Source: Candidatus Thalassarchaeum betae (GTDB lineage: Archaea > Thermoplasmatota > Poseidoniia > Poseidoniales > Thalassarchaeaceae). Taken from it: 12,357 bases of DNA. Numbering within the stretch: position 1 is the stretch's first letter; every line of letters begins with the position of its first letter. The stretch lies in NCBI GenBank assembly GCA_003193925.1, contig PSPG01000017.1, positions 1 through 12,357 of the forward strand, in the 5' to 3' direction. The notes under the pieces were generated by a model, which was not told the DNA's origin, ran no database searches, and worked only from the letters and a program-made list of their open reading frames with translations. The translations under genes and the position numbers were made by a program. Of this stretch, positions 3 through 12,357 are shown one piece after another.

Positions 3-3000
3 GGGAGACTCGGAGGGAGGGGGTGGAGTTGGTGGCTTTCCGTCGGCGATGTCCCACAGGTCATCGATAGACGTCTCCGAGGGCGCGCTCTCAAGCTCCT
101 CTAAGATTTCCTCTGCGCGCTCGGTTTCGCCCGGGCCTGAGTCTGGGGGTTCCGGTTCGTCGGCGGCTGGCTTGGTCGGTTTGGCAGTCTTGGGATGCGC
201 CTTCCGACTCCTACTCTTTGGTGGGGCCGGATCCTTCTCATCCAGCAGCGCCCACGACTCGTTGGGTAGCTGGGGTCTGGGCTTGCGCTTGCGGCCCTTC
301 AACAGCGAGCCATCCCCAGAGGCTCCTCCGGATTTCGACAGGGCCAGCAATGCCAACATAACGATTGCAGCCACGAACAGCATCGTCAGTGCGGTGCTGC
401 TGCGGATGGTCTCGAGAATGTTAAACGGCACGTCGTCGTCTTCCAGCGCGTCGTTGCAGCCGTCTGCGTCCCTGTCATTAGAGGAGTCAGAGACCCATCC
501 GACCACTCCGGTGGGGCACAAGTCGAGTTCGTCCGGGACGCCGTCGTTGTCGTCGTCGTCATCCTCCGAGAAATCCATGCATCCGTCGTTGTCGTAATCG
601 GGCTCAATCCCGGGCAGGGGACTGAGGGGGCAGGGGTCGAGGTCGTCGGGTATGCCGTCGTTGTCGTCGTCATCGTCTGCGAGGTCGTCGGCGCAGCCAT
701 CGCCGTCGCGGTCGTTGAACGGAGTCGACACCCAGTTCGTGAGCGGGCTGTCCTCACATGAGTCCAAGTCGGAGATGATGCCGTCGTTATCGAGGTCGTC
801 ATCCTCGAGCCTGTCATCGCAGCCGTCCCTGTCGAGGTCGACGCTGGCCGCGGTGACCTCTGGGCTCCGGATACAATCGTCGTCCACGTCTAGATGGCCG
901 TCGTTGTCGTCGTCCCCGTCCTCGCTGATGTCTCGGCAGCCGTCGCCGTCCCAGTCGTTGAAGGGCGAGGAGACCCATCCCACCTCGCCGTGGGGACACT
1001 CGTCGAGGTCGTTGTGCACTCCATCGTTGTCGATGTCCTCGTCCTCCACGAAGTCCTTGCAGCCGTCGCCGTCCCAGTCCAAGGCGTCTGAGGAGACCCA
1101 GTCGATGGCCCCTACAGGGCACAGATCGTCGGCGTCGCTCACGCCATCGTTGTCGTCGTCATCATCCTCCTGCAGGTCGTGGCAGCCGTCGCCGTCGTAG
1201 TCGAAGCTTGGATCATCCCACCAGGTCACGCCTGACGGGCAGTCGTCCTCGTCGTCGAGGTACGGGTCGCCGTCGTCGTTGTCGTCCTCGTCCCAGTCTC
1301 GGCAGCCGTCGCCGTCGTGGTCCTCGGACGAGTCCCAGTGCATGGCCCCGTCTGGGCAGTCGTCGAGGTGGTTCTCCACGCCGTCGCCGTCGTTGTCGGA
1401 ATCCTCGTAGCGGTCGTCGCAGCCGTCGCCGTCGCGGTCAACCGTGTCGTTGCCCATGTAGCCGGTGGGGCACAAGTCGAGCTCGTCCGGGACGCCGTCG
1501 TTGTCGTCGTCATCGTCCTCGGTGGAGTCCCTGCAGCCGTCGCCGTCATGGTCGGTCGTCTCATCGGAGAACCAGTCGGAGTTGCCCCACTGGCAGTCGT
1601 CCTCGGCATCCGGGACGCCGTCGGCGTCGTCATCGTCCCAATCGCCCTGGTTGACCATTTCCACGTGCAACAATATGCTGGTAATGGCCAGCTCGAAGCT
1701 GGCCGATGACACTGTCACCCAGAGGTCGAACGACTGGTTCTCGTTGACCTGCCTGAGGTTGGGCGCGCGCAGGAACAGGCTGATCGAGACGGATTCGCCT
1801 TCCATCAGGCTGACTGACGGTTGGTACGTGAAGCCGTGGCCGACCGTCGACACCCAGTAATCGGGGGTCTCGCTGGCGCTGAGATGGACGGTGTCGCCAC
1901 CTCCGGGGAGGGTGACTCCGATCAGTGTCATCGCCACATTCGCAGAGGCGTCGGGAGCGAGCGTCAAGTTGTCCGTTTGGCCGGGCTCGAGGACCAGATC
2001 TATCGAATAATCGGTCTGGGTCCAGAAGCAGAGCTGGGTCTCGAGATCGTTGTCTGGATAGGAGGTGGAGCAGTCTTCCGAGGTCCACAGGACGCTCCGG
2101 TACGGCCAGTCGAAGCCCACGATGGGCGGGGCCCCTGACCTAGTCTCGCCTGAATCGACGCCCATCAGGCTGGAGGCCCCGGAGGCAAGGACCTGGGTCT
2201 CGACCAACCCGTATGCCTGGTTGAGGGTCTGATCCAGGTCCAGATCGCCGTTGGAATCGCGCTGTGGCAACTGCAAACGGGTCCATCTGAGGTCGTTGCG
2301 GTAGTTGTCGGTCTCGAACCAGGTCATATGCACCGAGTCGTCCGAGTCAGAGGTGACCGTGGGGTACGCTCCCCACGTTAGATTTGAGTCGGCAATAGCC
2401 GTGTTGAGGACAGTGGTGGTCAGGTCGAGGTCGAGGCCGTCGAACTCGCCGTCGAGGTCGCCTTCGCGGTCCAGATCGATCTGCATGTAGTGGAGCTGGG
2501 ACGGGCCCTGGCGTTCTGTGACACCGAAGCGCCCGTCCGCCCAGACTACGTGCACGTTTCCGTAGTCGTCGATGTCGACGTCTGGGCTGGAGCTCCAGCC
2601 ATCTCCGTTCGTCAGACGGGTGTCGTTGGCGATTACGAGGTTGCCGTATCCCGAGAATGGGTCTATGGACGGGCCGATGTACTCGGCATACTGGTCATTG
2701 GTCGTGTCGGTGATGCTGCCAGGGGCGCCCAGCTCCCAGGTGACGGGGGGGTTGTTGATGAACGAGTACGGGTCCATCACAGTCAGGAATATCTCGGTGG
2801 AGCCCCCTGTTGAGAGATGCAACAAGCCGGAGACCATCAACTCCAACTCGGCCGAGTTCGATGCCGATGTCGGGAAACTGTACATCTGGCCCCCCGCGTC
2901 GGTGAGTCTTGTAGTCGAGCCGTTGCAGGTCCTGATGTTCAGGCCGGTGCCGTTCGGGCACTGGGCGAGGTCCATCATGTGCGATCCGACATCGGTGGAG

Positions 3001-4421
3001 CCGGAGCCGAAGCCAGCAGCCAGGAGGGGGACTGGGATGATGCCGGCGATGACGCAGGCGTCGTGGGCCTCGTTGATGCTCTGTGTGTCGTCCGACTGCT
3101 GGGCGGGGTCGCCGCCGTAGGGGCCCTCGTCAGAGATCGGGATCATGAATTTTAGTGCGCTTGAGTTCCAGTGGTGGTCAAGCTGAGTGGGTGGGTCGCC
3201 CGGGCTGATGCCGCTGCTGTCGTGCCACGACAGGCAGGCCCATGTCGAGCCCGGGCCCCACATCTCGCTGTAGTAGCCACCGTCCATAGGCAGGTCGATT
3301 GCGCCGCCGTCGTACATTACCTCGGTGAGTTCCCTGATGCCGCCCGAATCGTCTCCGGCTGAGAGGGGGGTGGTCCGGGGCCCTTGGCTGCCGGAGCCAC
3401 CGGTCTGGTAGGCCTCTGCGCAGTTGCCGCTTGTCGCAGCGCTGGGCCAGTTGCCGCTGAGCGCGTAAAGGGTCTCCATAACGGTGATGTCGGGATACTG
3501 CAGCAGCGGCTTCAGTCCGGCGAAGTAGCCACCGCTAGAGAAATAGCCGCCATAGAAGACTACGCACATGTCGGCCCACTCCGTGTCCATCGATCCGGAG
3601 GTGTCGATTGGCATGACCATCTCGATCGCGCTGCCTCGAGTGTCCTCCCACACCACCACGACGGTGTCGTCATCTCCCACTGAGATTGCCGGATGGCCCG
3701 CTTGGGAAATGATGGGTGTCACCAGTGTATGGCCTATCATCGTCATGAACCCGGAGGAGGTGTCGAATGCAACCATGGTGTAGTAGAGGTTAGGGGTGCT
3801 GTAGTACATGTCCAGCGAATCGTAGGTGTCGACCCAGACGATGTGCGCCGCGTCGTAGGAGTCCACTGCGATATCGGGGTCGGTTCTCGTGCCTGCTCCG
3901 TCCGCCAGCACGGTGGAGGGTTGGAGCGTCATGTTGGTGATGTCGCCCGCAGAGCCGTCATGGTCGTCTAAACCGGGGTCAATCAGGACGTACCTGATCT
4001 CCGTGCCGATGGACTCCCAGACGATGTGCGCCTTGGCTTGCGAGTCGACCACCATGACCGGATTGGTGATTGTCAGAGACGAGTTCGCGGGTATTTCGGT
4101 GGTGGATATCAGTGGATGCCCCGCGAGATTGAACAGGGCGTAGTTCAACGAGCCTGAGTAGGCGTCCTCCACCCACACCACGTGCACCCTGTTCAGGTGG
4201 TCAACGGCCCCCGTGACCTCGGCCGGGTCATCCATGTTGAGATTAGAGATCAGGGTCTGTATGGTGCTGTCGTTCGCGGTGTTGTTTGCCGTGAAATGGC
4301 GCTCGCCGGGGGTGTCAAGGACGGTATGCTGAGTGATGTGAATAGGGGCTGCGATGGAAAACAGGAGAATTGCTACCAGTATCACCGATTGGCGGTACGA
4401 ATTGAATGGCCCCCTAGTCAT
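3..4421 (-). CDS. Large secreted/membrane-anchored surface protein (signal peptide, beta-propeller with inserted vWA domain, Ig-like domain, thrombospondin type-3-like repeats, TM anchor, Pro/acidic tail); 3' end lies outside the window
   Basis: Manual translation from ATG at 4421 (MTRGPFNSYRQSVILVAILLFSIAAP...) stays open to the left edge (...DLWDIADGKPPTPPPPSESP), 1473 codons. The Ser-rich + strand ORFs in the track are its antisense shadows, all in one register. Hydrophobic N-terminus; D-x-x-x-x-x-H-[VI]-V-W blade motifs; IDTSGSM and ISDEG vWA motifs; DxDxDGC repeats; TM segment ALTMLFVAAIVMLALLAL (~339-392) followed by KGRKRKPR. Confidence 0.93.
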   Translation of the reverse strand, partial: MTRGPFNSYRQSVILVAILLFSIAAPIHITQHTVLDTPGERHFTANNTANDSTIQTLISNLNMDDPAEVTGAVDHLNRVHVVWVEDAYSGSLNYALFNLAGHPLISTTEIPANSSLTITNPVMVVDSQAKAHIVWESIGTEIRYVLIDPGLDDHDGSAGDITNMTLQPSTVLADGAGTRTDPDIAVDSYDAAHIVWVDTYDSLDMYYSTPNLYYTMVAFDTSSGFMTMIGHTLVTPIISQAGHPAISVGDDDTVVVVWEDTRGSAIEMVMPIDTSGSMDTEWADMCVVFYGGYFSSGGYFAGLKPLLQYPDITVMETLYALSGNWPSAATSGNCAEAYQTGGSGSQGPRTTPLSAGDDSGGIRELTEVMYDGGAIDLPMDGGYYSEMWGPGSTWACLSWHDSSGISPGDPPTQLDHHWNSSALKFMIPISDEGPYGGDPAQQSDDTQSINEAHDACVIAGIIPVPLLAAGFGSGSTDVGSHMMDLAQCPNGTGLNIRTCNGSTTRLTDAGGQMYSFPTSASNSAELELMVSGLLHLSTGGSTEIFLTVMDPYSFINNPPVTWELGAPGSITDTTNDQYAEYIGPSIDPFSGYGNLVIANDTRLTNGDGWSSSPDVDIDDYGNVHVVWADGRFGVTERQGPSQLHYMQIDLDREGDLDGEFDGLDLDLTTTVLNTAIADSNLTWGAYPTVTSDSDDSVHMTWFETDNYRNDLRWTRLQLPQRDSNGDLDLDQTLNQAYGLVETQVLASGASSLMGVDSGETRSGAPPIVGFDWPYRSVLWTSEDCSTSYPDNDLETQLCFWTQTDYSIDLVLEPGQTDNLTLAPDASANVAMTLIGVTLPGGGDTVHLSASETPDYWVSTVGHGFTYQPSVSLMEGESVSISLFLRAPNLRQVNENQSFDLWVTVSSASFELAITSILLHVEMVNQGDWDDDDADGVPDAEDDCQWGNSDWFSDETTDHDGDGCRDSTEDDDDDNDGVPDELDLCPTGYMGNDTVDRDGDGCDDRYEDSDNDGDGVENHLDDCPDGAMHWDSSEDHDGDGCRDWDEDDNDDGDPYLDDEDDCPSGVTWWDDPSFDYDGDGCHDLQEDDDDDNDGVSDADDLCPVGAIDWVSSDALDWDGDGCKDFVEDEDIDNDGVHNDLDECPHGEVGWVSSPFNDWDGDGCRDISEDGDDDNDGHLDVDDDCIRSPEVTAASVDLDRDGCDDRLEDDDLDNDGIISDLDSCEDSPLTNWVSTPFNDRDGDGCADDLADDDDDNDGIPDDLDPCPLSPLPGIEPDYDNDGCMDFSEDDDDDNDGVPDELDLCPTGVVGWVSDSSNDRDADGCNDALEDDDVPFNILETIRSSTALTMLFVAAIVMLALLALSKSGGASGDGSLLKGRKRKPRPQLPNESWALLDEKDPAPPKSRSRKAHPKTAKPTKPAADEPEPPDSGPGETERAEEILEELESAPSETSIDDLWDIADGKPPTPPPPSESP
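430..1645 (-). repeat. Ten tandem thrombospondin type-3-like Ca2+-binding units within the surface protein
   Basis: Ten ~38-41-aa units of the form DDDDNDGVPDxxDxCP-x(10-14)-DxDGDGCxDxxED, each with two Cys. Produces the gtcgtcgtc-rich DNA on the + strand. Confidence 0.9.
2810..3629 (-). other. von Willebrand factor A (vWA) domain inserted in the propeller of the surface protein
   Basis: AIEMVMPIDTSGSM (MIDAS DxSxS at 3605-3591), later WNSSALKFMIPISDEGP (beta4 with the conserved Asp), AHDACVIAGIIPVPL, MMDLA and GGQMYSF, in the usual vWA order. Confidence 0.8.
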
Positions 4422-4568
4422 CGGTAGCCTACCAGCGTATTTCTCTAAAGATTGATTCGGTTTCAGGTCAGAACCCGTATTAGCAGTATCGCTTACCTAC
4501 GGTTCCTACAATCAATCGCATGGGGGCCCCTTCCGCTCGTATATGGTCGGATGGGTACCCTCTGATTC

Positions 4569-4589
4569 GGTTTGGATCCTCGTGAGTCC
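4569..4589 (-). repeat. Partial/hybrid copy (E) of the intergenic repeat
   Basis: Reverse complement GGACTCACGAGGATCCAAACC. ATCCTCGTGAGT (4576-4587) is identical to 11640-11651. Confidence 0.55.
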
Positions 4590-4642
4590 ACTCTCTGGAG
4601 TTGTCCGGTTGGTTTTTGACCACCGAACCTCTACTCATCCCG

Positions 4643-5104
4643 ATGAGAATCGAGCGACTCTCCCCCAATGAGTGGGAGCGACTCCAATCCATCCGACTGC
4701 GTTCGTTGCTAGAATCGCCTGAGTCATTTAGCACCACGCACGAGCAGGCATCGCTATTCCCACATGAGTCCTGGGTAAAGCAACTCGAAGACCTTCCTAC
4801 ATTCGTGGCCGTCCTCGATGGCGGGGACGCAGGAATTGTACGCGGGGAGCATGATGAGGAAAAGGACGAGGTTTGGCTAATCTCGCTTTGGGTGGCCCCC
4901 GAGGCACGCGGACTTGGCATAGGTGAAACCCTTGCCAGAGAGGTCATCGACTGGGTGAAATCGATAGGAAATCAAACTCTCGTGCTCGAAGTCCGCGAGG
5001 GAAATAAGCATGCTCGAGATCTATACGCTAGGATGGGATTCCTACCCAACGGTGCAGTGCCTACAGACTGCTGTGAGATTCAACTAGAGCTGGTTCTGGA
5101 ATGA
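4643..5104 (+). CDS. GNAT family N-acetyltransferase
   Basis: MRIERL...W start (ATG 4643 preferred over TTG 4601). Motif A LWVAPEARGLGIGETL and motif B LEVREGNKHARDLYARMGF. Confidence 0.9.
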   Translation: MRIERLSPNEWERLQSIRLRSLLESPESFSTTHEQASLFPHESWVKQLEDLPTFVAVLDGGDAGIVRGEHDEEKDEVWLISLWVAPEARGLGIGETLAREVIDWVKSIGNQTLVLEVREGNKHARDLYARMGFLPNGAVPTDCCEIQLELVLE

Positions 5105-5120
5105 GCCTCCGATGACCATG

Positions 5121-5167
5121 TCCTCGTGGATCTAAACCCCTGAGCTTCCGGACTCAAGAGGATTTAC
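5121..5167 (+). repeat. Intergenic palindromic repeat, copy A (longest)
   Basis: TCCTCGTGGATCTAAACCCCTGAGCTTCCGGACTCAAGAGGATTTAC, 16 nt after the GNAT stop. Imperfect terminal inverted repeat TCCTCGTG...CAAGAGGA and inner TGAG...CTCA. Confidence 0.9.
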
Positions 5168-5231
5168 TCTGCACATATGCCAATTAAATTCCATAGGAAT
5201 AACCATTGTTAGTTGGTGACTTCAGCGAATA

Positions 5232-5960
5232 ATGGAGCTCCTCCTCCTCGCTTGCCTCGGGGCATTCTTCGCTGCGGCTCTCACCGTGCCCGCAGGTTTC
5301 GGCCTCTCGACCATGCTGACTCCGATCGTCCTCCTCCTAATGGGCCCTCACGAAGCGGTGGCTGTCGTTGCAGTGGTGCACGGTGCACACAATGCGGGGA
5401 AATATCTGGCGTTGCGTGAGAGCGTCGATGTCTCCGCCTTCAAACACTACGGCATCTGGTTGGTCATCGGTGCCATCGTCGGTGCCTTATTGCAAAATCA
5501 GGTACCGCAGGACCCACTTCTTGCCATAATCGGCCTCTTCCTCGTTCTCCTACCACTCTTGTCTCTAAGCGAATCGTGGACAGGGCATAGGATTCCAGAG
5601 GCCAACGATCGAGTTGGGGGCTTCGCGTCCGGATTCATGGGGGGTCTCTCTGGGCATCAGGGTGCCCTGCGGGCAATGTTCCTTACCAGACGATTGACGG
5701 ACAAGATGGCCTACGCTGCAACAGCGAGCGTGCTCGCGCTGTGCGTGGACGCCTCGCGGATTCCAGTCTACCTCATTTTCCGTTTCGACGAAACCGTAGC
5801 ACATGCACAACTCACAGCGTTCCTCGTAGTTGCCGCCTTGCTTGGCGTTCGGGTGGGGAAGCGATGGTTGGAGTCCATGAAATCGGAATGGATACACAAC
5901 TTCGTGACCGTTGGAGTCGTTGCCAGTGGGATCTTCTATCTCTATGAGGCACTTACGTGA
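5232..5960 (+). CDS. Sulfite exporter TauE/SafE (TSUP) family membrane protein
   Basis: 242 aa, about 8 hydrophobic segments. Twofold repeated family motifs AGFGLSTMLTP and GFMGGLSGHQGALRAMFL. Confidence 0.85.
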   Translation: MELLLLACLGAFFAAALTVPAGFGLSTMLTPIVLLLMGPHEAVAVVAVVHGAHNAGKYLALRESVDVSAFKHYGIWLVIGAIVGALLQNQVPQDPLLAIIGLFLVLLPLLSLSESWTGHRIPEANDRVGGFASGFMGGLSGHQGALRAMFLTRRLTDKMAYAATASVLALCVDASRIPVYLIFRFDETVAHAQLTAFLVVAALLGVRVGKRWLESMKSEWIHNFVTVGVVASGIFYLYEALT

Positions 5961-5972
5961 CAGTAGAATGGG

Positions 5973-6019
5973 ACGAGGGTCTGAACCCTCGTGGATCTAA
6001 ACCCCTGAGCTTCCGGACT
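5973..6019 (+). repeat. Intergenic palindromic repeat, copy B, preceded by an overlapping perfect hairpin
   Basis: 5987-6019 is identical over 33 bp to 5122-5154. 5973-5992 is ACGAGGGT-CTGA-ACCCTCGT (8-bp stem, 4-nt loop). Confidence 0.9.
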
Positions 6020-6056
6020 TGTTTTCTGAACTTTGAGAGATTCTACAGGTGAGCGA

Positions 6057-7275
6057 ATGACAACAGTGCAATTCAATGTCGACAATCGTCAAGCTAAGCG
6101 AAATGTCGCTGTCTTGTTCTACGCACAGGCGATTCTCGGCTCGCAACAATCGATCAATATCATCCTCGGCGGGCTAGCAGGATTCGCTCTCGCCGGCAAC
6201 AAAGCATTGGCGACATTGCCGATCTCGGTCATGCTTCTCGCTTCGATGCTTTCGGCAGGTCCAGTTTCGTTATTCATGGGACGGTTTGGACGTAGGGCAG
6301 GATTTCTGCTCGGAGCAGCAGCAGGACTGCTTGGAGGAGGTTGCAGTGCATTGGCATTGTATGTCGGGCGATTCGACTTGCTTTTGCTAGGAGCGGGCTT
6401 GACTGGAATCTTCCGCTCGACCCACGGGTATTTCCGCTTCGCGGCAGCCGATACGGCTTCTGAAGAATTCAAACCGAAGGCGATTTCTCTGGTTTTGGCC
6501 GGCGGATTGCTGAGTGCATGTTCGCTCGACAACCGATGCAATAGATTCAACCCCTTATGCTGGCGCTTATCTCGCAGTAATCGCAATCAATGTGATCGGC
6601 TCACTCGGACTATTATTCCTCGATATCCCAACACCACCACGAAAAAAGAAAGGAGAAAAATCAGGTCGAGATCTCAAAGAAATCTTCACTCAACCAAAAA
6701 CGGTTGTCGCAGTTATCTGCGCCATGGTTTCCTACGCGATGATGACGCTTGTGATGACTTCTACAACGCTGGCGATGACAGCGACTGGATTCACCACCGC
6801 GGGGGCTGCAGACGTGATTCGCTGGCATATCATCGCGATGTTCGCGCCGAGTTTCTTCACCGGCGCGATAATCTCTCGAATCGGTCAATTACGGGTGATC
6901 ATGATTGGCCTTACACTACTTGGAATCGCGGCGTTCATCAGTGTCAGTGGGGATGAGGTCGAAAACTTCTACTTTGCATTAATCGCATTGGGGCTCGGAT
7001 GGAATTTCGGTTTCATCGGAGCAACAAGTCTGCTGACGACGACACACACAAGTGAGGAACAGGCGAAGGTGCAAGGACTGAATGATGTGCTGGTGTCAGG
7101 CCTCGTGACGATTGCCTCATTTGGCTCGGGCGCTATCCTGCAAATTTACGGTTGGGAATATGTGCAATATGCGATGATCCCAGCTCTTTCCTTGGCTGCC
7201 CTGGCCATTCTCTGGTTGGCGATCAAAACCAGACGTGCACGGAGCATAGAACCGAACTTCGGAGGTATGCGGTGA
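6057..7275 (+). pseudogene. MFS transporter, frameshifted near 6519
   Basis: ATG 6057 follows AGGTGA. The N-half has MFS motif A (MGRFGRRAGF) and YFRFAAAD...KAISLVLAGGLLSA. The C-half (HIIAMFAPSFFTG, GLGWNFGFIGAT, KVQGLND) is in a different frame (ORF 6514..7275). Confidence 0.85.
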
Positions 7276-7338
7276 TAGAAACAGTGAATGCAGTGGAATA
7301 GAGGTCTAGGAAATCCGTGGTCCCCCGTGAGCCTTGAA

Positions 7339-7376
7339 TCCTCGTGGATCTAAACCCCTGAGTCTGAACCCACAGG
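7339..7376 (+). repeat. Intergenic palindromic repeat, copy C (truncated, joined to a GTCTGAACCC module)
   Basis: 7339-7362 (TCCTCGTGGATCTAAACCCCTGAG) is identical to 5121-5144. GTCTGAACCC (7362-7371) also occurs at 5979-5988. Confidence 0.88.
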
Positions 7377-7440
7377 AACCACTACCCTCACAGGAGGCAC
7401 ATCCCTTCCTCCGTTTCAGCTATGATGGCTACCTGAATTC

Positions 7441-7468
7441 AATTTCACGTTAGCCTCGCCCTGCCTGC
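7441..7468 (+). promoter_or_regulatory. Putative regulatory motif upstream of the PolB2 operon
   Basis: AATTTCAC-N8-CGCCCTGCCTGC ends 37 nt before ATG 7506. It resembles the motif upstream of the RadA-like gene. Confidence 0.45.
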
Positions 7469-7505
7469 AAAGTTCATCATACCCTCTCGGTAATCTCGGT
7501 CGCCC

Positions 7506-7757
7506 ATGGGCAGGACAGTAGCGACTTGGAGGAACCGGATTGAATGCCGGGTTGAGAGGTGGACGGGTTTCCGGCGCGTGTTGAGAATGGCGGAGCGTGC
7601 CGAGTTCGATCGCATGTTGAGAGCGGCTCGCGAGCGGGCGGCGGCATGTGGGATGGTCCCCTCCTCCGACGTCTTCGAGCCGGCTGTACTAGCGATGCTG
7701 GTCGATGTCAACTCTAGGCTGACTGCCTTGGAGACTCGCGGTGACGAGGATGATTGA
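7506..7757 (+). CDS. Small alpha-helical PolB2-associated protein (arCOG07300-like)
   Basis: MGRTVATWR...WTGFRRVLRMAERAEFDRML..AR matches the MGRTxPT..W..FRRALR..D...FD.L pattern I recall for the small gene adjacent to archaeal polB2. Its stop overlaps the polB start by 8 nt. Confidence 0.8.
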   Translation: MGRTVATWRNRIECRVERWTGFRRVLRMAERAEFDRMLRAARERAAACGMVPSSDVFEPAVLAMLVDVNSRLTALETRGDEDD

Positions 7758-10137
7758 AGGATGGGTTCTGGACACCCATCTGGACTACGCATCGGAGCGC
7801 ATGGTACTGTGGGTTAAGAATGACGATGGCAGCGTCTCCAGCCACTCGTTCGAATGGAGCCCAGTGCTGCACGTACACGGCCAGTCGCAGCACATGGAGG
7901 AGTTGCGAAACGCACTGCTCCGTCCCGAGTACCAAGTGCCGTTCGGCAACCTGATCATCGGCCAGGAGCGTCAGCGAATTCGTCATGAGGATGCGGGACC
8001 CGTCGAGGTCCTGACCGTGGGGGTCTCTCGCCCTTCGAAGATACTCAGAGTCGCCGAGATGCTCTCTGCGAATGGGGCCTGGAGGAACTTTGAGCTGTTC
8101 TCTGTCGACCCTAAGATCGCGCAGAGATTCCTGCTCGACCTCGGAACGTTCCCGTTCGGTCGAGTGCGTGTCGAGGGGGGTGGTATCGTGCCACTCGACT
8201 CACGCACCGACGTGGATTGCCCCCTGCCACCGCTTCGTCAGGTGAAGTTGCACGTGGCATGCCATGATCTGCATGGCAAGCGGTGCGCGGGAGCCGAGAT
8301 AACGAGCGTGACCCTAATCGACATCGGCTGCATGGGATCGGAGGCCGAAGACGAGGTCTGGCACGCACGCGCGGAAGACTACGAGGAACCCGCTGCCTTC
8401 CTCGAGGCATTCGCAAGCGAGTTCGACCGCTTGGACCCGGATGTCGTGATTACGGACTACGGCGACAGCGTGGACTTCCCCGCGCTGCGAACTCTCGCCG
8501 AGAAAGAGGGTAAGCCGCTGCAGTTGAGCCGAAACGCGCACGACTGCACCCCCCGCCGCGAGGCGACCACGTCCTGGAGTTACGGCAGACTGCTGCGCTC
8601 CGACGCATATCATGCCCTCCAAGGGCGGCTGCACATCGACATGGGCACTTCGTTCATGGGCAAGGAGGGTGGCATGGAGGGTTTGTGCGAGCTCGCTCGC
8701 GTCTCCGGGCTCCCCGCCCAGGATCTCTCTAGGCTCTCCCCCGGCTCGGCCATTTCGGCTATGCAAATCCGCCAGTCGATGGAGGACGGCGTGCTGATTC
8801 CATGGAAGAAGAACCGCCCCGAGGACATGAAAACCGCCACGCAGATGCTATTCGCCGATCGGGGCGGGCTCTATCTCGACCCAAGACCGGGTGTCCACGA
8901 AGACGTATACGAACTAGACTACGCGAGCCTGTTTCCGAGCATCATCGCGACTAGGAACATCAGCCCGGAGACAATGAGTTGCGAGTGCTGTAACCCCGCT
9001 GGCACGGAGGATCGGCGCGATGGGCGCCTGCCTCTGGAGGCCGAGCGTGCCGCGAGGGAGATCGAGCGACGGTCGGAGGAGGGCGAGGTGCGCAAGCTGG
9101 TGGTCCCGGAGCTTGGTCTGCACGTCTGCACGAGGAGACATGGGTTCCTCGGTCGGGTGGTGGCTCCTATAATAGAGAGGAGGACCTACCTTAAGTCGAA
9201 GCGTAAGGAGAAGGGGGATGTCTGGGACAGGCGCCAGAACGTGCTCAAGTGGATTCTGGTCTGCTGCTTCGGATACACTGGGTACCGCAACGCGCGCTTT
9301 GGCAGGATTGAGTGCCACGAGGCGATTTGCGCATGGTCACGCGACATACTGCTAGATACCATCGAGGAGGCCGAACTCGATGGCTGGGAGTGCCTGCACG
9401 CAATCGTCGACTCGATATGGATCGCCGACACGCGGGGCCGCAACGAGGAGGAGAGGGCAGAGTCAATCTCCCGCCTGATCTCACGCATCGAGGCGAGGAT
9501 CGGCATCCCGCTGGAGCTTGAGGAGGTCTACGAGTGGATCGCCTTCGTCCCAAACCGTACCACCGGCGTGGGCGCCCTAACGAAGTACTTCGCTTACGGG
9601 CGCGAGGGCTGGAAGGTGAGGGGGATCGAGCTGCGGCAGCACTCCACCTGCAATTGGGTCCGCGACCTGCAGGAGTCGATCATGGAGATCCTGCGACAGG
9701 ACCCGCCCGGAGAGGCCCCCGCGAGGGGCGTCGAGCACCTGCACTACGAGCTGGCCCGCCTCCGAGGGGGCAAGGTCCCCCTGGCTGACTTGGTGGTGGG
9801 GCGTCGCGTCAGGAACGAGGTCGGCACCCATCGCGTCCTCAACCTCACGGCCGCTGCACTGTTGCGAGAACGGAGCTTGGGGCAGCGCACGCCACCCGGG
9901 CGCAAGGTGCGCTTCGCCGTGGTCGGCTGGGAGCGTCCCGACGCTGCGGATAGAATCAGGATGGAGTCTGAGGTCGAGGCGAGGACCCCCCCGACCTCCG
10001 GGCAGAGTGGCGACTGCGACTTCTACGAGCCCCTCGCCATCCGAGCCGCAACGGCGCTTCTAGCGCCGTTCGGCTGGTCCGAGGATGGGATCAGGGGGGG
10101 CAGGTCAGTGCAGACCTCACTGACGATGTGGGCGTGA
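7750..10137 (+). CDS. polB2: Family B DNA polymerase, archaeal PolB2 (Dpo2-like) subfamily
   Basis: Motif A LDYASLFPSIIATRNISPET; motif B variant RQNVLKWILVCCFGYTGY; motif C variant HAIVDS instead of YGDTDS, typical of PolB2; KVRGIELRQ. ExoI acidic residues not recognisable. C-terminal PIP-like QTSLTMW. ATG 7750 has GGTGA 5 nt upstream. Confidence 0.92.
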   Translation: MIEGWVLDTHLDYASERMVLWVKNDDGSVSSHSFEWSPVLHVHGQSQHMEELRNALLRPEYQVPFGNLIIGQERQRIRHEDAGPVEVLTVGVSRPSKILRVAEMLSANGAWRNFELFSVDPKIAQRFLLDLGTFPFGRVRVEGGGIVPLDSRTDVDCPLPPLRQVKLHVACHDLHGKRCAGAEITSVTLIDIGCMGSEAEDEVWHARAEDYEEPAAFLEAFASEFDRLDPDVVITDYGDSVDFPALRTLAEKEGKPLQLSRNAHDCTPRREATTSWSYGRLLRSDAYHALQGRLHIDMGTSFMGKEGGMEGLCELARVSGLPAQDLSRLSPGSAISAMQIRQSMEDGVLIPWKKNRPEDMKTATQMLFADRGGLYLDPRPGVHEDVYELDYASLFPSIIATRNISPETMSCECCNPAGTEDRRDGRLPLEAERAAREIERRSEEGEVRKLVVPELGLHVCTRRHGFLGRVVAPIIERRTYLKSKRKEKGDVWDRRQNVLKWILVCCFGYTGYRNARFGRIECHEAICAWSRDILLDTIEEAELDGWECLHAIVDSIWIADTRGRNEEERAESISRLISRIEARIGIPLELEEVYEWIAFVPNRTTGVGALTKYFAYGREGWKVRGIELRQHSTCNWVRDLQESIMEILRQDPPGEAPARGVEHLHYELARLRGGKVPLADLVVGRRVRNEVGTHRVLNLTAAALLRERSLGQRTPPGRKVRFAVVGWERPDAADRIRMESEVEARTPPTSGQSGDCDFYEPLAIRAATALLAPFGWSEDGIRGGRSVQTSLTMWA

Positions 10138-10853
10138 GGCCGGAATTCAAGCAGGGAGGTCTGGCCCTCGGCGAGCTCCGCCCATGGGACTGTCAGGCCA
10201 ATCGAGGCCAGATGCAGTAGGGATGTCGACCTCCCCCCTCGCCTCCCGCCCCGTCCGGCTCTGAATGCCCTCAGACAATCGTCTGCGGCATGCTCTAGGT
10301 TCGCCCGCAGGGCTTTCGGCAGGATCGGAGAGGTTCGTCGGCGTGTGGTGATGACCACCAGCGAGTCGGACGTCTCGGCAGTCGTGCGCAGGCCCTCCAG
10401 TGTCTTGCGGAGGAGCGCTCTGCCCTCGGCCCGGTTGATCTGTGGGTCTGCGAACATCCGCGCTAGGTCGGAGGCTACGACGAGCCGTCCTCCGGAGAGG
10501 CGTTCTGGAGGTGATTCCTCCGTTGCCTCGGCTGCCAGTCGCTCGACGATGGCCGTGGTCTGGTGTGCCGTGAAACCCCTGCACGCGTGCAGTCTGTCCA
10601 TGGCATCGCCAGGGCAGTCGCGCCAGAGTAGGAGCGAGAGGATGTCGGAGGGGTCGAACCTCATCCCTCCGTCTATCCAGTGAACGGGCCTGCCCTCGGC
10701 CAGCTCGTCGCAGACCATGCCATGCACGAGTGGCATCATCTCCCTCCTCTCCTGCTCGAGCAGGAGCAGAGTCCCGGTCCTCGGGCGGGGGAGTTGCAGA
10801 TCCAACAAGCGGTCCCCCCACGATATCCCGTGTCGTTCGGAAGCGGTAGCCAC
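10023..10853 (-). CDS. RadA/RecA-fold protein with degenerate Walker A (PolB2-associated type)
   Basis: PRTGTLLLLE (beta1, no GxxxxGKT), VHWIDGGMRFDP, LHACRGFTAHQ (the RAFTxYQ-type motif), LVVASD Walker-B-like strand, LVVITT. PIP-like QTSLLEF near the C-terminus. GTG start and true 3' end are uncertain. Confidence 0.75.
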   Translation of the reverse strand: MATASERHGISWGDRLLDLQLPRPRTGTLLLLEQERREMMPLVHGMVCDELAEGRPVHWIDGGMRFDPSDILSLLLWRDCPGDAMDRLHACRGFTAHQTTAIVERLAAEATEESPPERLSGGRLVVASDLARMFADPQINRAEGRALLRKTLEGLRTTAETSDSLVVITTRRRTSPILPKALRANLEHAADDCLRAFRAGRGGRRGGRSTSLLHLASIGLTVPWAELAEGQTSLLEFRPHAHIVSEVCTDLPPLIPSSDQPNGARSAVAARMARGS

Positions 10854-10894
10854 GGGCTATCGACTCGGCTTTCCATTTAGAGTGAGTCCAAGAG

Positions 10895-10921
10895 GCGGGC
10901 AGGACGTCTGAAAGTGAAAAT
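10895..10921 (-). promoter_or_regulatory. Putative regulatory motif in the divergent RadA-like/SRAP intergenic region
   Basis: Minus strand ATTTTCAC-N7-CGTCCTGCCCGC ends 41 nt before GTG 10853. A TCTAAAT TATA-like element lies ~22-28 nt before the start. Confidence 0.45.
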
Positions 10922-10943
10922 AGTGGGAGAAGCTTCGGGGAGC

Positions 10944-11579
10944 ATGTGCGGGCGTTTTGCGTTGGGCGCTGACCCAGAGTTGGTCGCACTTGTCTTCGAT
11001 GCCAAACTCGTCGCCCTACCTGTCCGTCCTAGTTGGAACATCGCACCAACGGATCCCGCCAACATCGTATACGACGATGGCGAGGGGAAGGTAATCGGTC
11101 CGATGCGCTGGGGCTTCGACCTCAGCAGCAGCCGGAAGGCGTTCAACGCCCGTCTGGAGACGATTCTGGACAAGTGGCGCTTCAAGAGGTCCGCGCAGTG
11201 GCACAGGTGCTTAGTCCCGGCCACGGGTTGGTACGAGTGGACGAAGTCCGAGGACGGCGGCAGGGACCCTCACTTCCTCACTTCGCCCGAGTCCGACTTG
11301 ATTGCCCTCGGTGGTCTATGGGAGAAGGACGCCGACGATGCCCGATTCACCATCATCACGAGGCCCGCCCTCGACGGCTTGCAGCACCTTCACGATCGGA
11401 TGCCTTTGGTCCTCCCCTCTGATAAGTGGGATATCTGGCTCAACCCCGACGGTTCTGAGGTTGCCGGAGATGAAAGTGTAAAGGTGGCTACCGATCGAAT
11501 CAATTTCTCCTATCACAGGGTTTCAAGGGAGGTGAACAACTCTCTCTCCGAGGGACCTGAGCTCGTGGATTCAATCTGA
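10944..11579 (+). CDS. SOS response-associated peptidase (SRAP/HMCES/YedK) family abasic-site protection protein
   Basis: The start must be ATG 10944 (MCGRF, catalytic Cys2) rather than 10914. Conserved WNIAPT, MRWG, FNARLET, RCLVPATGWYEW (Glu), HDRMP (His) and VSREVN. Confidence 0.95.
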   Translation: MCGRFALGADPELVALVFDAKLVALPVRPSWNIAPTDPANIVYDDGEGKVIGPMRWGFDLSSSRKAFNARLETILDKWRFKRSAQWHRCLVPATGWYEWTKSEDGGRDPHFLTSPESDLIALGGLWEKDADDARFTIITRPALDGLQHLHDRMPLVLPSDKWDIWLNPDGSEVAGDESVKVATDRINFSYHRVSREVNNSLSEGPELVDSI

Positions 11580-11635: not shown

Positions 11636-11671
11636 GTAAATCCTCGTGAGTACGGAAGCTCAGGGGTTTAG
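11636..11671 (-). repeat. Intergenic palindromic repeat, copy D
   Basis: Reverse complement CTAAACCCCTGAGCTTCCGTACTCACGAGGATTTAC matches 5132-5167 at 34/36. It starts 22 nt past the marC stop, in marC's orientation. Confidence 0.9.
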
Positions 11672-11693: not shown

Positions 11694-12323
11694 TCATGCG
11701 CCGAGAGTCGCGTGCCACACGGCCAATCCATCGAACAAATACTGGGCCGCAATGACGACGGTGAGCAGCCCCATGATTCGAGTGATGATGCGAACCACAT
11801 TGTCGCTGAGGAAGTTGGACATCGAGGAGACGAGTATGAATATCAGCAGCGAGAGGGTCATCACCGCAATGGTTGCCATGGCGACCATGTTTGTAGAGAA
11901 TTCGGGGTTCGTCCCAAGGAGAATCACCAGACTGATCGAGCCCGGCCCCGCCAACATCGGCATGCCCAATGGGACGAGAGAGAAATCGACTGGCGTTTCG
12001 TGAACGACAGATGGAATGAGTGCGGGCTCATAACTCGGCTTCTCGCCCTCTTTGAGCATACTCACCCCGATGAGCCCGAGCAGCAGGCCACCCGCGGCCT
12101 GGAGACTGTACATCTCGACGTGCATGAAAGTCAGCAGTGCTTCACCACTGAAGACAAAGAAGAGCAGTACCATTGTCGCGAATGCACACGCTCGAAAGGC
12201 GATTCTGCGAAGCGCAGCTGTGCTGCGCTCCGAGCCAAGGGTCAGGAAGAAGGCGATCGATGCAGGCGGGTCGACGACTACCAGCAGTGGGATGATTGCG
12301 AGTACCAGCGTACCAAGGTCCAT
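11694..12323 (-). CDS. marC: MarC family integral membrane protein
   Basis: LLVVVDPPASIAFF, FSGEALL, AAGGLLL, VPLGMPMLAGPGSI and ITRIMGLL are family hallmarks; six hydrophobic segments. Confidence 0.92.
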   Translation of the reverse strand: MDLGTLVLAIIPLLVVVDPPASIAFFLTLGSERSTAALRRIAFRACAFATMVLLFFVFSGEALLTFMHVEMYSLQAAGGLLLGLIGVSMLKEGEKPSYEPALIPSVVHETPVDFSLVPLGMPMLAGPGSISLVILLGTNPEFSTNMVAMATIAVMTLSLLIFILVSSMSNFLSDNVVRIITRIMGLLTVVIAAQYLFDGLAVWHATLGA

Positions 12324-12357
12324 AGAATGCGAGCGCCATGCGCCCCATATTTGAATC

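Follow-up and report, generated by a model that had tools for sequence, protein, structure and literature searches.

A near-invariant 40-nt repeat in Marine Group II archaea that resembles the joint of a gene-shuffling system not described before

Marine Group II archaea rank among the most abundant plankton that have not been cultured, and they have few recognisable mobile elements. To our knowledge, next to nothing has been established about the construction of their flexible genome. Here, we discuss a locus from “Candidatus Thalassarchaeum betae” that bears on this question. The stretch analysed, “the window”, is the complete 12,357-bp contig PSPG01000017.1 (C13) of assembly GCA_003193925.1, which comprises 1.48 Mb in 23 contigs and is 92% complete; the closest public matches are Poseidoniales/“Candidatus Thalassarchaeum” metagenome-assembled genomes (MAGs; marine Group II-b). 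In the window, three co-oriented genes, encoding a GNAT acetyltransferase, a TauE/SafE-family transporter and an MFS transporter, are each followed by a copy of the same short repeat. What kind of process leaves one repeat after each of three genes? An earlier note on this DNA interpreted the layout as an array left by a gene-capture system. We find that the repeat resembles the joint of a so far undescribed system for shuffling genes, which is not an integron. All comparisons described here use metagenome contigs and MAGs, in which chimeric assembly at repeats is possible; the same junction types are seen again in independent contigs and in four studies.

The repeat can be recognised by a 23-mer, CCTCGTGGATCTAAACCCCTGAG, which occurs exactly, on the + strand, at positions 5122, 5987 and 7340; none of 200 dinucleotide shuffles contained a match. 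The families of the three genes are confirmed by Pfam: GNAT (4601–5104, + strand; PF00583, 4e-18; in-frame ATG at 4643), TauE (5232–5960, + strand; PF01925) and MFS (6058–7275, + strand; confirmed for 6514–7275). The repeat begins 17, 26 and 64 nt past the respective open reading frame (ORF) ends at 5104, 5960 and 7275, i.e., the copies do follow the stop codons, at distances that replace the 16–63 nt given initially. Copy 1 (5122–5161, + strand) has the full 40 nt with one mismatch, an A at 5157, and an extended end, ATTTAC, that reaches 5167; all contigs covering position 5157 in four public sequencing runs have C there. Copy 2 (5987–6019, + strand) consists of the first 33 nt, without the tail end, and is identical to copy 1 throughout (5122–5154). 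Copy 3 (7340–7362, + strand) consists of the first 23 nt; it has 24 nt in common with copy 1, counting the preceding T. The earlier note recognised only these three and overlooked a fourth, inverted copy (11636–11671, − strand), which has positions 11–40 plus ATTTAC, lacks the first 10 nt, is 94% identical over 36 nt, and sits 22 nt past the stop codon of a gene for a MarC-family membrane protein.

A half-copy upstream of the GNAT gene, also proposed earlier, was found as well. The last 12 nt of the repeat, CCTCGTGAGTCC, are present in inverted orientation at 4578–4589 (− strand), and they are directly preceded by an “arm” motif (4556–4577, − strand), the reverse complement of GTCCAAACCGAATCAGAGGGTA with one mismatch. 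This is the only match to this arm (arm A) in the genome at ≤3 mismatches. The inverted 12-nt end is the left boundary of a GNAT+TauE block and of a larger island; in other genomes, a full inverted copy adjoins the same flank. In this genome, the island extends from the inverted end at 4578 through the GNAT, TauE, MFS, PolB, SRAP and MarC genes into contig C6. The right end of the window (12267–12357) is an exact 91-nt reverse overlap with C6 59615–59705, meaning that C13 continues into C6. On C6, a truncated inverted copy at 59526–59557, just upstream of the MarC start, precedes core genes.

The full repeat is 40 nt long: CCTCGTG, a 26-nt asymmetric centre, and CACGAGG (46 nt with the extended ends). 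Hence, the term “palindromic” used for it previously is apt for the 7–10-nt ends and not for the centre. The consensus unit over all aligned copies is CCTCGTGGATCTAAACCCCTGAGCTTCCGGACTCACGAGG; we refer to the CCTCGTGGATC side as the “head” and the GGACTCACGAGG side as the “tail”. On either side, 8 nt of a weaker motif resembling RTTCAAAC prolong the 7-nt inverted ends. Across 100 distinct copies, positions 2–39 are ≥90% invariant. Of 92 head flanks, 28 have an arm motif ending in GGTA directly next to the repeat, as do 36 of 81 tail flanks; on both sides, it is directed away from the repeat. The arm motif occurs 14 times, compared with 2–6 times in shuffles. A long hairpin formed from the arms, as in a miniature inverted-repeat transposable element (MITE) or an attC-like site, was considered and rejected: complementarity between arms of the same copy (7.9/26) does not exceed that of random pairs (8.3/26), and the repeat is therefore not a long hairpin inherited whole.

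The repeat has relatives with the same ends and other centres. One group comprises 24-nt palindromes in which TCCGAA is the middle of a 9-6-9 layout (C1:54881, C9:1252 and L054:168), and the 40-nt copy opens with an arm plus spacer similar to theirs. Another class of palindromes, centred on GGTACC, was considered as a genome-wide repetitive extragenic palindrome (REP) family and rejected, with one instance in the genome. The right end of contig C5 and the segment 1–1637 of C20 end in the same 91 nt, and the two sequences part exactly at CACGAGG; the C5 form has a different 44-nt centre, between GCTCGTG and CACGAGG, and represents either a variant of the element or another haplotype.

A repeat that is intergenic and often lies 1–50 nt from a stop codon could be an RNA element, i.e., a terminator-type element of the 3′ untranslated region or a small RNA, with no role in DNA rearrangement. 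The 24-nt relatives fit this description, being perfect hairpins between convergent genes. The direct copies do not: RNA folding of the three in the window is no better than that of shuffles (z −0.3 to −0.5), and only the inverted copy reaches z = −2.2. No Rfam family rises above chance: at E ≤ 1, the window has just two matches, both at chance level and unrelated to the repeat. The orientation of the repeat relative to genes is inconsistent, and an RNA role would leave its breakpoints, reassortment and patchy distribution, described below, without explanation. We consider this interpretation very unlikely.

The repeat is clustered within this genome and patchy beyond it, the repeat family being restricted to a small number of Thalassarchaeaceae lineages. 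Its ~12 sites here fall into three regions, namely C13 together with the C6 end that adjoins it, the initial 8.4 kb of C18 and the initial 3.8 kb of C20. This is not the genome-wide scatter that would have spoken against a link with variable gene content. The repeat is present in 3 of 21 genomes of the genus, and an identical 22-mer is found in 6 of 226 genomes of the family (Thalassarchaeaceae), representing 4 of 13 genera. In addition, there are matches in nine stretches of a one-genome-per-species collection and in 101 metagenome stretches. In some carriers, the genes flanking the repeat are only 73–86% identical to those of this genome. These copies were gathered by an exact 20-mer, such that divergent copies are under-sampled; 50 of 138 copies lie ≤150 nt from the end of a locus. 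The repeat 20-mer has no match in a collection of viral contigs, and a viral carrier is not supported. At least half of the sampled words of window positions 4400–7500 were found in 20 runs from 11 studies. In four runs from four studies, 2–15 contigs per run span the repeat and contigs break at copies, with many different loose contig ends beginning at 5118–5124 and 5155–5167. One of the runs, X1, contains joints of 4577 to 5122 and of 5164 to 7326 that are hints only, their sides being just 21–22 nt at 90% likeness. Depth differences between module contigs, and an uncovered GNAT bin in run X11, were set aside as no evidence because the data are contigs. A literature search, excluding supplements, found no account of this repeat in Marine Group II.

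What happens to genes at the repeat? In a first type of case, whole blocks from the window occur elsewhere between other neighbours. The GNAT+TauE block (window 4579–6004) is found in locus L064 at 99.4% identity, with homology that begins at the inverted 12-nt end (4579) and ends 18 nt into copy 2. Similarly, the MFS block (window 5985–7362) is found in L110 and L065 at 96–98% identity with a different left flank, and there it is followed by a full repeat copy and a GST-like gene in place of PolB. A second type of case is seen 3′ of one aldo/keto-reductase gene, where three haplotypes have flanks that are 99–100% identical and differ only past the repeat: nothing follows in the first, a 957-nt segment that includes a gene for a 219-aa protein in the second, and a 1.8-kb segment that ends in a second direct copy in the third. 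“Copy” and “copy-segment-copy” haplotypes are seen, e.g., in L118 versus L032 and L041. The head flank of the aldo/keto-reductase gene has 10 different tail-side partners; overall, more than one partner was found for 14 of 74 head flanks and 19 of 64 tail flanks.

A third case involves a native chromosomal gene. In six relatives within the genus that lack the repeat, a TauE ortholog (77–80% amino acid identity) lies between genes for a 350-aa and a 158-aa protein. In the genome studied here, the same two genes are direct neighbours on C16, separated by 7 nt, and the only TauE ortholog is the copy in the array. This shows that the gene moved from an ancestral locus into the array. Synteny of the three array genes in relatives was looked for and not found; for GNAT and MFS there is no DNA-level match in the 20 other genus genomes.

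The positions at which homology ends are consistent with these cases. In comparisons between contigs, 217 of 645 internal homology breakpoints lie in the interval from −30 to +70 nt around a copy; they are most frequent at its outer edges and at positions 7 and 34, i.e., the inner borders of the 7-nt ends. The assembly graph of this genome has one branch point exactly at CACGAGG. Spacing between adjacent copies ranges from 287 to 5385 nt and is mostly 400–1800 nt, about one gene. Modules thus undergo exchange, insertion, deletion and inversion, with the breakpoints lying at the repeat. There is good support for describing the repeat as conserved, horizontally patchy and situated where movable modules of gene size meet.

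The genes next to the repeat are mixed. Among 112 clusters of neighbouring genes, accessory functions (aldo/keto reductase, MORN, GNAT, TauE, MFS, SDR, methyladenine glycosylase, restriction-type nucleases, GIY-YIG and NYN) occur together with core ones (rpS10/EF-1alpha, pyrI, purH and malic enzyme, at copies in metagenome contigs). Module genes have atypical G+C (GC) content and codon scores. In the window, GNAT (54%), TauE (57.5%) and MFS (51–54%) are lower in GC than PolB (63%), as the earlier note had pointed out for MFS, and lower than a surface-protein gene (62%); all three score low under a codon model trained on this genome.

The SDR unit of contig C20 (2912–3821) raises a different possibility. 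It consists of a partial inverted copy, a gene and a full copy, and has perfect 25-nt inverted ends. The same unit occurs in L036 at 98–99% identity, between a DUF255 gene and a malic-enzyme gene that in this genome are adjacent, at C4:~52750, without a repeat copy; homology between the two units stops at the outer edges of the repeat. A unit with inverted ends at a place that can lack a copy would fit a transposon. The tail end of the repeat (CCTCGTGAGTCC..., ≤25 nt) might then be the terminal inverted repeat of a non-autonomous, MITE-like element, with pairs of ends mobilising the DNA between them, the 40- and 24-nt forms being mini-elements without cargo, and a transposase, unrecognised or missing from the assembly, acting in trans. 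The inverted 12-nt tail end that opens the GNAT+TauE block, the resemblance of the 24-nt tail-to-tail palindromes to end-to-end mini-elements, the occurrence of either repeat orientation relative to one and the same flank, and a sequence that is identical yet patchy across genera all fit this model. Several observations do not. There is no target-site duplication: direct repeats of 2–8 nt are not enriched at any offset from 0 to 31 across 90 copies. None of eight transposase families was found in the genome, nor was any transposase among the 112 neighbour clusters. As many as 15 of 29 adjacent pairs of copies are direct rather than inverted, and no clean presence/absence polymorphism of a solo copy was found; the sole candidate for an empty solo-copy site, L033 versus L060, turned out to be a different arrangement of partial copies. 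Lastly, the lone “empty” site, that of the SDR unit, is a rearrangement hotspot: in relatives, its two sides are on different contigs, with an arm-like motif at the break. A DNA-level search of the genus with the C20 flank found nothing, the species being too divergent. On balance, a transposon-end or MITE-like element is rather unlikely.

The break at the SDR insertion place also bears on a passive role for the repeat. Downstream of the malic-enzyme gene (C4 ~52739, L171; L174–L192), all examined genomes of the genus have a GAATCA..CCCTA/GGGTA motif, and synteny ends directly after it, including in genomes that lack the 40-nt repeat. The arm motif may thus be an older recombination-prone element. 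If the repeat had spread once, stretches of 40–90 nt of identity, together with the arms, could simply serve as substrate for the usual homologous recombination and gene conversion, in which DNA from related cells might take part. Direct and inverted arrangements, deletions between direct copies and inversions all occur, as this would predict; arms and 7–10-nt ends form a mosaic of short shared modules that could explain why flanks switch sides; and no dedicated enzyme was found. Homologous recombination alone explains much of the shuffling. It cannot, however, put the SDR unit into a copy-free locus or cleanly extract TauE from a repeat-free one. Moreover, 38 near-invariant positions across genera whose genes are 15–30% diverged require selection or ongoing transfer, and 40 nt is a short substrate for frequent homologous exchange. 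A purely passive repeat is therefore rather unlikely as a full account.

The cassette reading proposed earlier survives in part. It stands for gene-sized units that occur in other contexts with breakpoints at the repeat, and for the relocation of TauE; it fails for the polarity that an integron would impose. The window does show a site after each of three single, co-oriented genes of foreign composition, as expected of a canonical cassette array without an integrase (a cluster of attC sites lacking integron-integrases, CALIN) that has unusual attC sites, and integrons are known from archaeal MAGs (PMC9668308). The gene-then-site layout is not general, however. On the head side, 30 flanks are gene 3′ ends and 20 are gene 5′ ends (p = 0.2); on the tail side, the counts are 20 and 17. 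These counts are from crude gene calls, with many flanks having no call within 150 nt, and after removal of duplicate flanks. Adjacent copies form 15 direct and 14 inverted pairs (9 heads-inward and 5 tails-inward), and 20 of 73 head-side flanks are also present, inverted, on the tail side. An integron-type capture system would not leave such side-switching flanks or such a lack of polarity. The site itself also differs from attC, as the earlier note recognised: RYYYAAC/GTTRRRY ends are absent from either strand, the nearest strings, TCTAAAC and GTTTAGA, failing the consensus quoted there, and a 40-nt site with a conserved centre and variable surroundings is the opposite of attC. No IntI was found in the genome, although at 92% completeness its absence is not proven; the sole tyrosine recombinase scores 92 bits on the integron integrase model TIGR02249 (integrase_gron), against a cut-off of 265. 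In its main text, the paper on archaeal integrons deals with canonical attC and IntI and makes no mention of Thermoplasmatota or Marine Group II (PMC9668308). A canonical integron is excluded by the features tested, and a cassette array with unusual attC sites can be given hardly any credence.

The interpretation that we favour, with a rough probability of 40%, is that the repeat is the joint linking accessory modules in a flexible island and is acted on by a conservative site-specific recombinase supplied in trans. Under this interpretation, accessory gene-sized modules would be joined at the repeat, which would be the substrate of the recombinase. The enzyme would most likely be of the tyrosine type, either the host’s XerA-like protein or an integrase on an unlinked element, and homologous recombination between the many identical copies would add further shuffling. 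Support for a recombinase in trans comes from the near-invariant site, the lack of target duplications, the arm-spacer-arm layout of sub-sites, the copy-segment-copy polymorphisms, and the adjacency of one copy to a tRNA gene and of another to an integrase gene.

With regard to tRNAs, one repeat copy in L029 begins 3 nt past a tRNA-Ala gene, and the same tRNA-Ala in this genome is where synteny with L029 ends. Directly beside other copies (C18 5785–5815 [L001] and L071 ~1090–1110) there is a string like the 3′ end of a tRNA (T-arm plus acceptor). ARAGORN predicts no tRNA at these strings, which may be remnants of an integration site. A tRNA search of the window found none.

With regard to enzymes, ten recombinase and transposase families were searched for in the genome. 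Only Phage_integrase gave a match, to a single XerA/XerC-like gene (378 aa, contig C4) whose best fit is to XerC/XerA models; Y1_Tnp, DDE_Tnp_1, TnpB, IS110, rve, DDE_3, DDE_Tnp_4 and Cas1 were not found. The earlier statement that the window has no recombinase is correct, and in the genome there is only this housekeeping gene. Pfam finds no recombinase among the 112 neighbour clusters either. The only recombinase beside a copy is a 337-aa tyrosine recombinase in L054, with its 3′ end ~60 nt from a truncated copy. Positions 1–2492 of L054, a short metagenome contig, contain, in this order, the 3′ end of a GNAT-like gene, arm motifs, the 24-nt palindromic relative, an ORF of 222 aa that matches no Pfam family at E ≤ 1e-4, the truncated copy and the convergent recombinase gene.

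Several observations weigh against a conservative recombinase acting in trans. First, on an asymmetric site, such an enzyme should hold each flank to one side, and more than a quarter of head-side flanks (the 20 of 73 noted above) switch. Second, homology often ends at the inner edge of the 7-nt ends. Truncated copies end at many positions, such that no single crossover point is apparent from them. Third, the SDR unit, with inverted copies at a copy-free place, is not a product of copy-by-copy recombination, and the hotspot at that place means that its “empty” state need not be ancestral. Fourth, neither candidate enzyme tracks the repeat. The XerA-like gene is single-copy in 20 of 21 genus genomes compared with 3 of 21 for the repeat, i.e., the two do not co-occur. 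The L054 gene is the one integrase gene in 449 kb of repeat-bearing contigs; its relatives are found in 6 of 301 genomes of the order, none of them a repeat-positive genome of the genus and none with an adjoining copy. Lastly, the 24-nt palindrome at C1:54881 was considered as the chromosomal dif site and rejected, since it is present in only 6 of 151 family genomes.

The remaining features of the window concern the state of the assembly and the other genes of the island. The MFS gene is in two frames in this assembly owing to a 17-nt deletion after 6519. Contigs from all four public runs contain the 17 nt, in two sequence variants, and the gene is unbroken in L065 (436 aa; MFS_1 match, 1.6e-22). 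The deletion is either an assembly error or a rare variant. The MarC gene (11694–12356, − strand; identified by Pfam) has 9 additional nt at window position 12007 in contigs from three of the four runs. Three contigs of the assembly, C2, C15 and C22 (4–7 kb), have a GC content of 45–46% compared with ~62% for the remainder, and may be foreign, mis-binned or rRNA-bearing pieces.

Between the MFS gene and the inverted copy, the island includes genes for a family-B DNA polymerase (PolB; 7741–10137, + strand) and an SOS-response associated peptidase (SRAP; 10914–11579, + strand), both identified by Pfam. PolB has no match at E ≤ 1e-50, and SRAP no DNA-level match, in the 20 other genus genomes. 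PolB is below the cut-off of every NCBIfam PolB model (best score 410 bits against 692). Since PolB lies, with SRAP, inside a repeat-bounded island, it may belong to a mobile element. A 280-aa ORF between the two genes (10147–10989, − strand; GC at third codon positions 0.74) overlaps the SRAP start by 76 nt and has no Pfam or NCBIfam match. Left of the island, a 1473-aa open frame (3–4421, − strand) with nine tandem units of 114–126 nt, rich in GAC and GGC codons, encodes an aspartate/cysteine-rich repeat protein; it has no Pfam match at 1e-3, whilst its relative among the neighbour genes, in L059, is similar to thrombospondin type-3 repeats.

Together, these observations provide a testable handle on gene flow in Marine Group II: a near-invariant site at the joints of modules, with a native gene drawn in, that comes with a defined 40-nt DNA substrate, two candidate enzymes, and public samples containing alternative junctions. 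A bolder version of the idea is that Marine Group II has an unrecognised gene-cassette system, in which the housekeeping XerA or the integrase of a rare element acts in trans on the 40-nt site, through its tyrosine-recombinase-like sub-sites, to excise chromosomal genes (TauE being an example), pack them as modules of one gene each and re-insert them into flexible islands across genera. We regard this as doubtful. It would be the archaeal functional counterpart of integrons and of the pdif modules of bacterial plasmids, with its own site chemistry.

How does the repeat compare with known systems? Some likenesses are superficial. Clustered regularly interspaced short palindromic repeats (CRISPR) can be rejected on spacing, since copies are 865 and 1353 nt apart in the window and 287–5385 nt apart elsewhere, compared with spacers of 25–50 nt. 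REPs, bacterial interspersed mosaic elements and their RAYT transposases offer a closer parallel: the repeat is extragenic, has hairpin-capable ends, and combines into a mosaic with the arms, which are a second motif of alternating orientation. It differs in its low copy number, its clustering in islands rather than across the genome, and the lack of any Y1/RAYT gene found. MITEs and composite transposons likewise have terminal inverted repeats (7–10 nt here), cargo units with inverted ends (12–25 nt here) and cargo-free mini forms; they differ from the repeat, for which direct arrangements are frequent and neither a target-site duplication nor a matching transposase was found.

In Neisseria, dRS3 repeats flank RS segments in intergenic mosaic elements (NIME), and minimal mobile elements are also described (PMC1797815). 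According to the parts of that source considered here, the resemblance is broad: short repeats with terminal inverted ends, arrays with variable segments near surface-protein genes, a proposed role as recombinase-binding sites that promote exchange of neighbouring genes, and small gene clusters that alternate between conserved flanks. However, dRS3 is 20 bp long and present in hundreds of copies, with non-coding segments of 50–150 bp, whereas here there are ~12 copies per genome and whole-gene segments. The sequences are unrelated and the hosts belong to different domains of life.

With integrons, as far as the archaeal integron paper covers them, the window shares promoter-poor single genes of foreign composition followed by a site-like repeat and, as in CALINs, the lack of an adjacent integrase. 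Beyond the missing R″/R′ ends, IntI and polarity, the two differ in what is conserved, which is sequence here and structure in attC, and in that flanks here can be found on one side of the site as well as on the other.

The repeat system works most like pdif/xrs modules, in which genes on Acinetobacter plasmids are flanked by Xer recombination sites (PMC11705084). To judge from the relevant parts of that source, copies of a short site enclose a single adaptive gene or a small number of them in both systems, and both have the same module in different backbones (SDR, GNAT+TauE and MFS here), inverted as well as direct pairs, no target duplication and no linked dedicated recombinase, with a housekeeping Xer as the candidate. 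The 9-6-9 layout of the 24-nt relatives may or may not reflect a dif-like design, in which inverted arms of ~11 bp surround a 6-bp spacer. Unlike the 28-bp, 11-6-11 dif mimic of pdif modules, the site here has 40 nt with a 26-nt asymmetric centre, and the modules here are chromosomal and archaeal, with Xer having a candidate role. Because its site differs in length, layout and sequence, the system belongs to none of the pdif/xrs modules, integrons or dRS3/NIME arrays. If the housekeeping Xer does act on it, the pdif-module principle would extend from bacterial plasmids to archaeal chromosomes.

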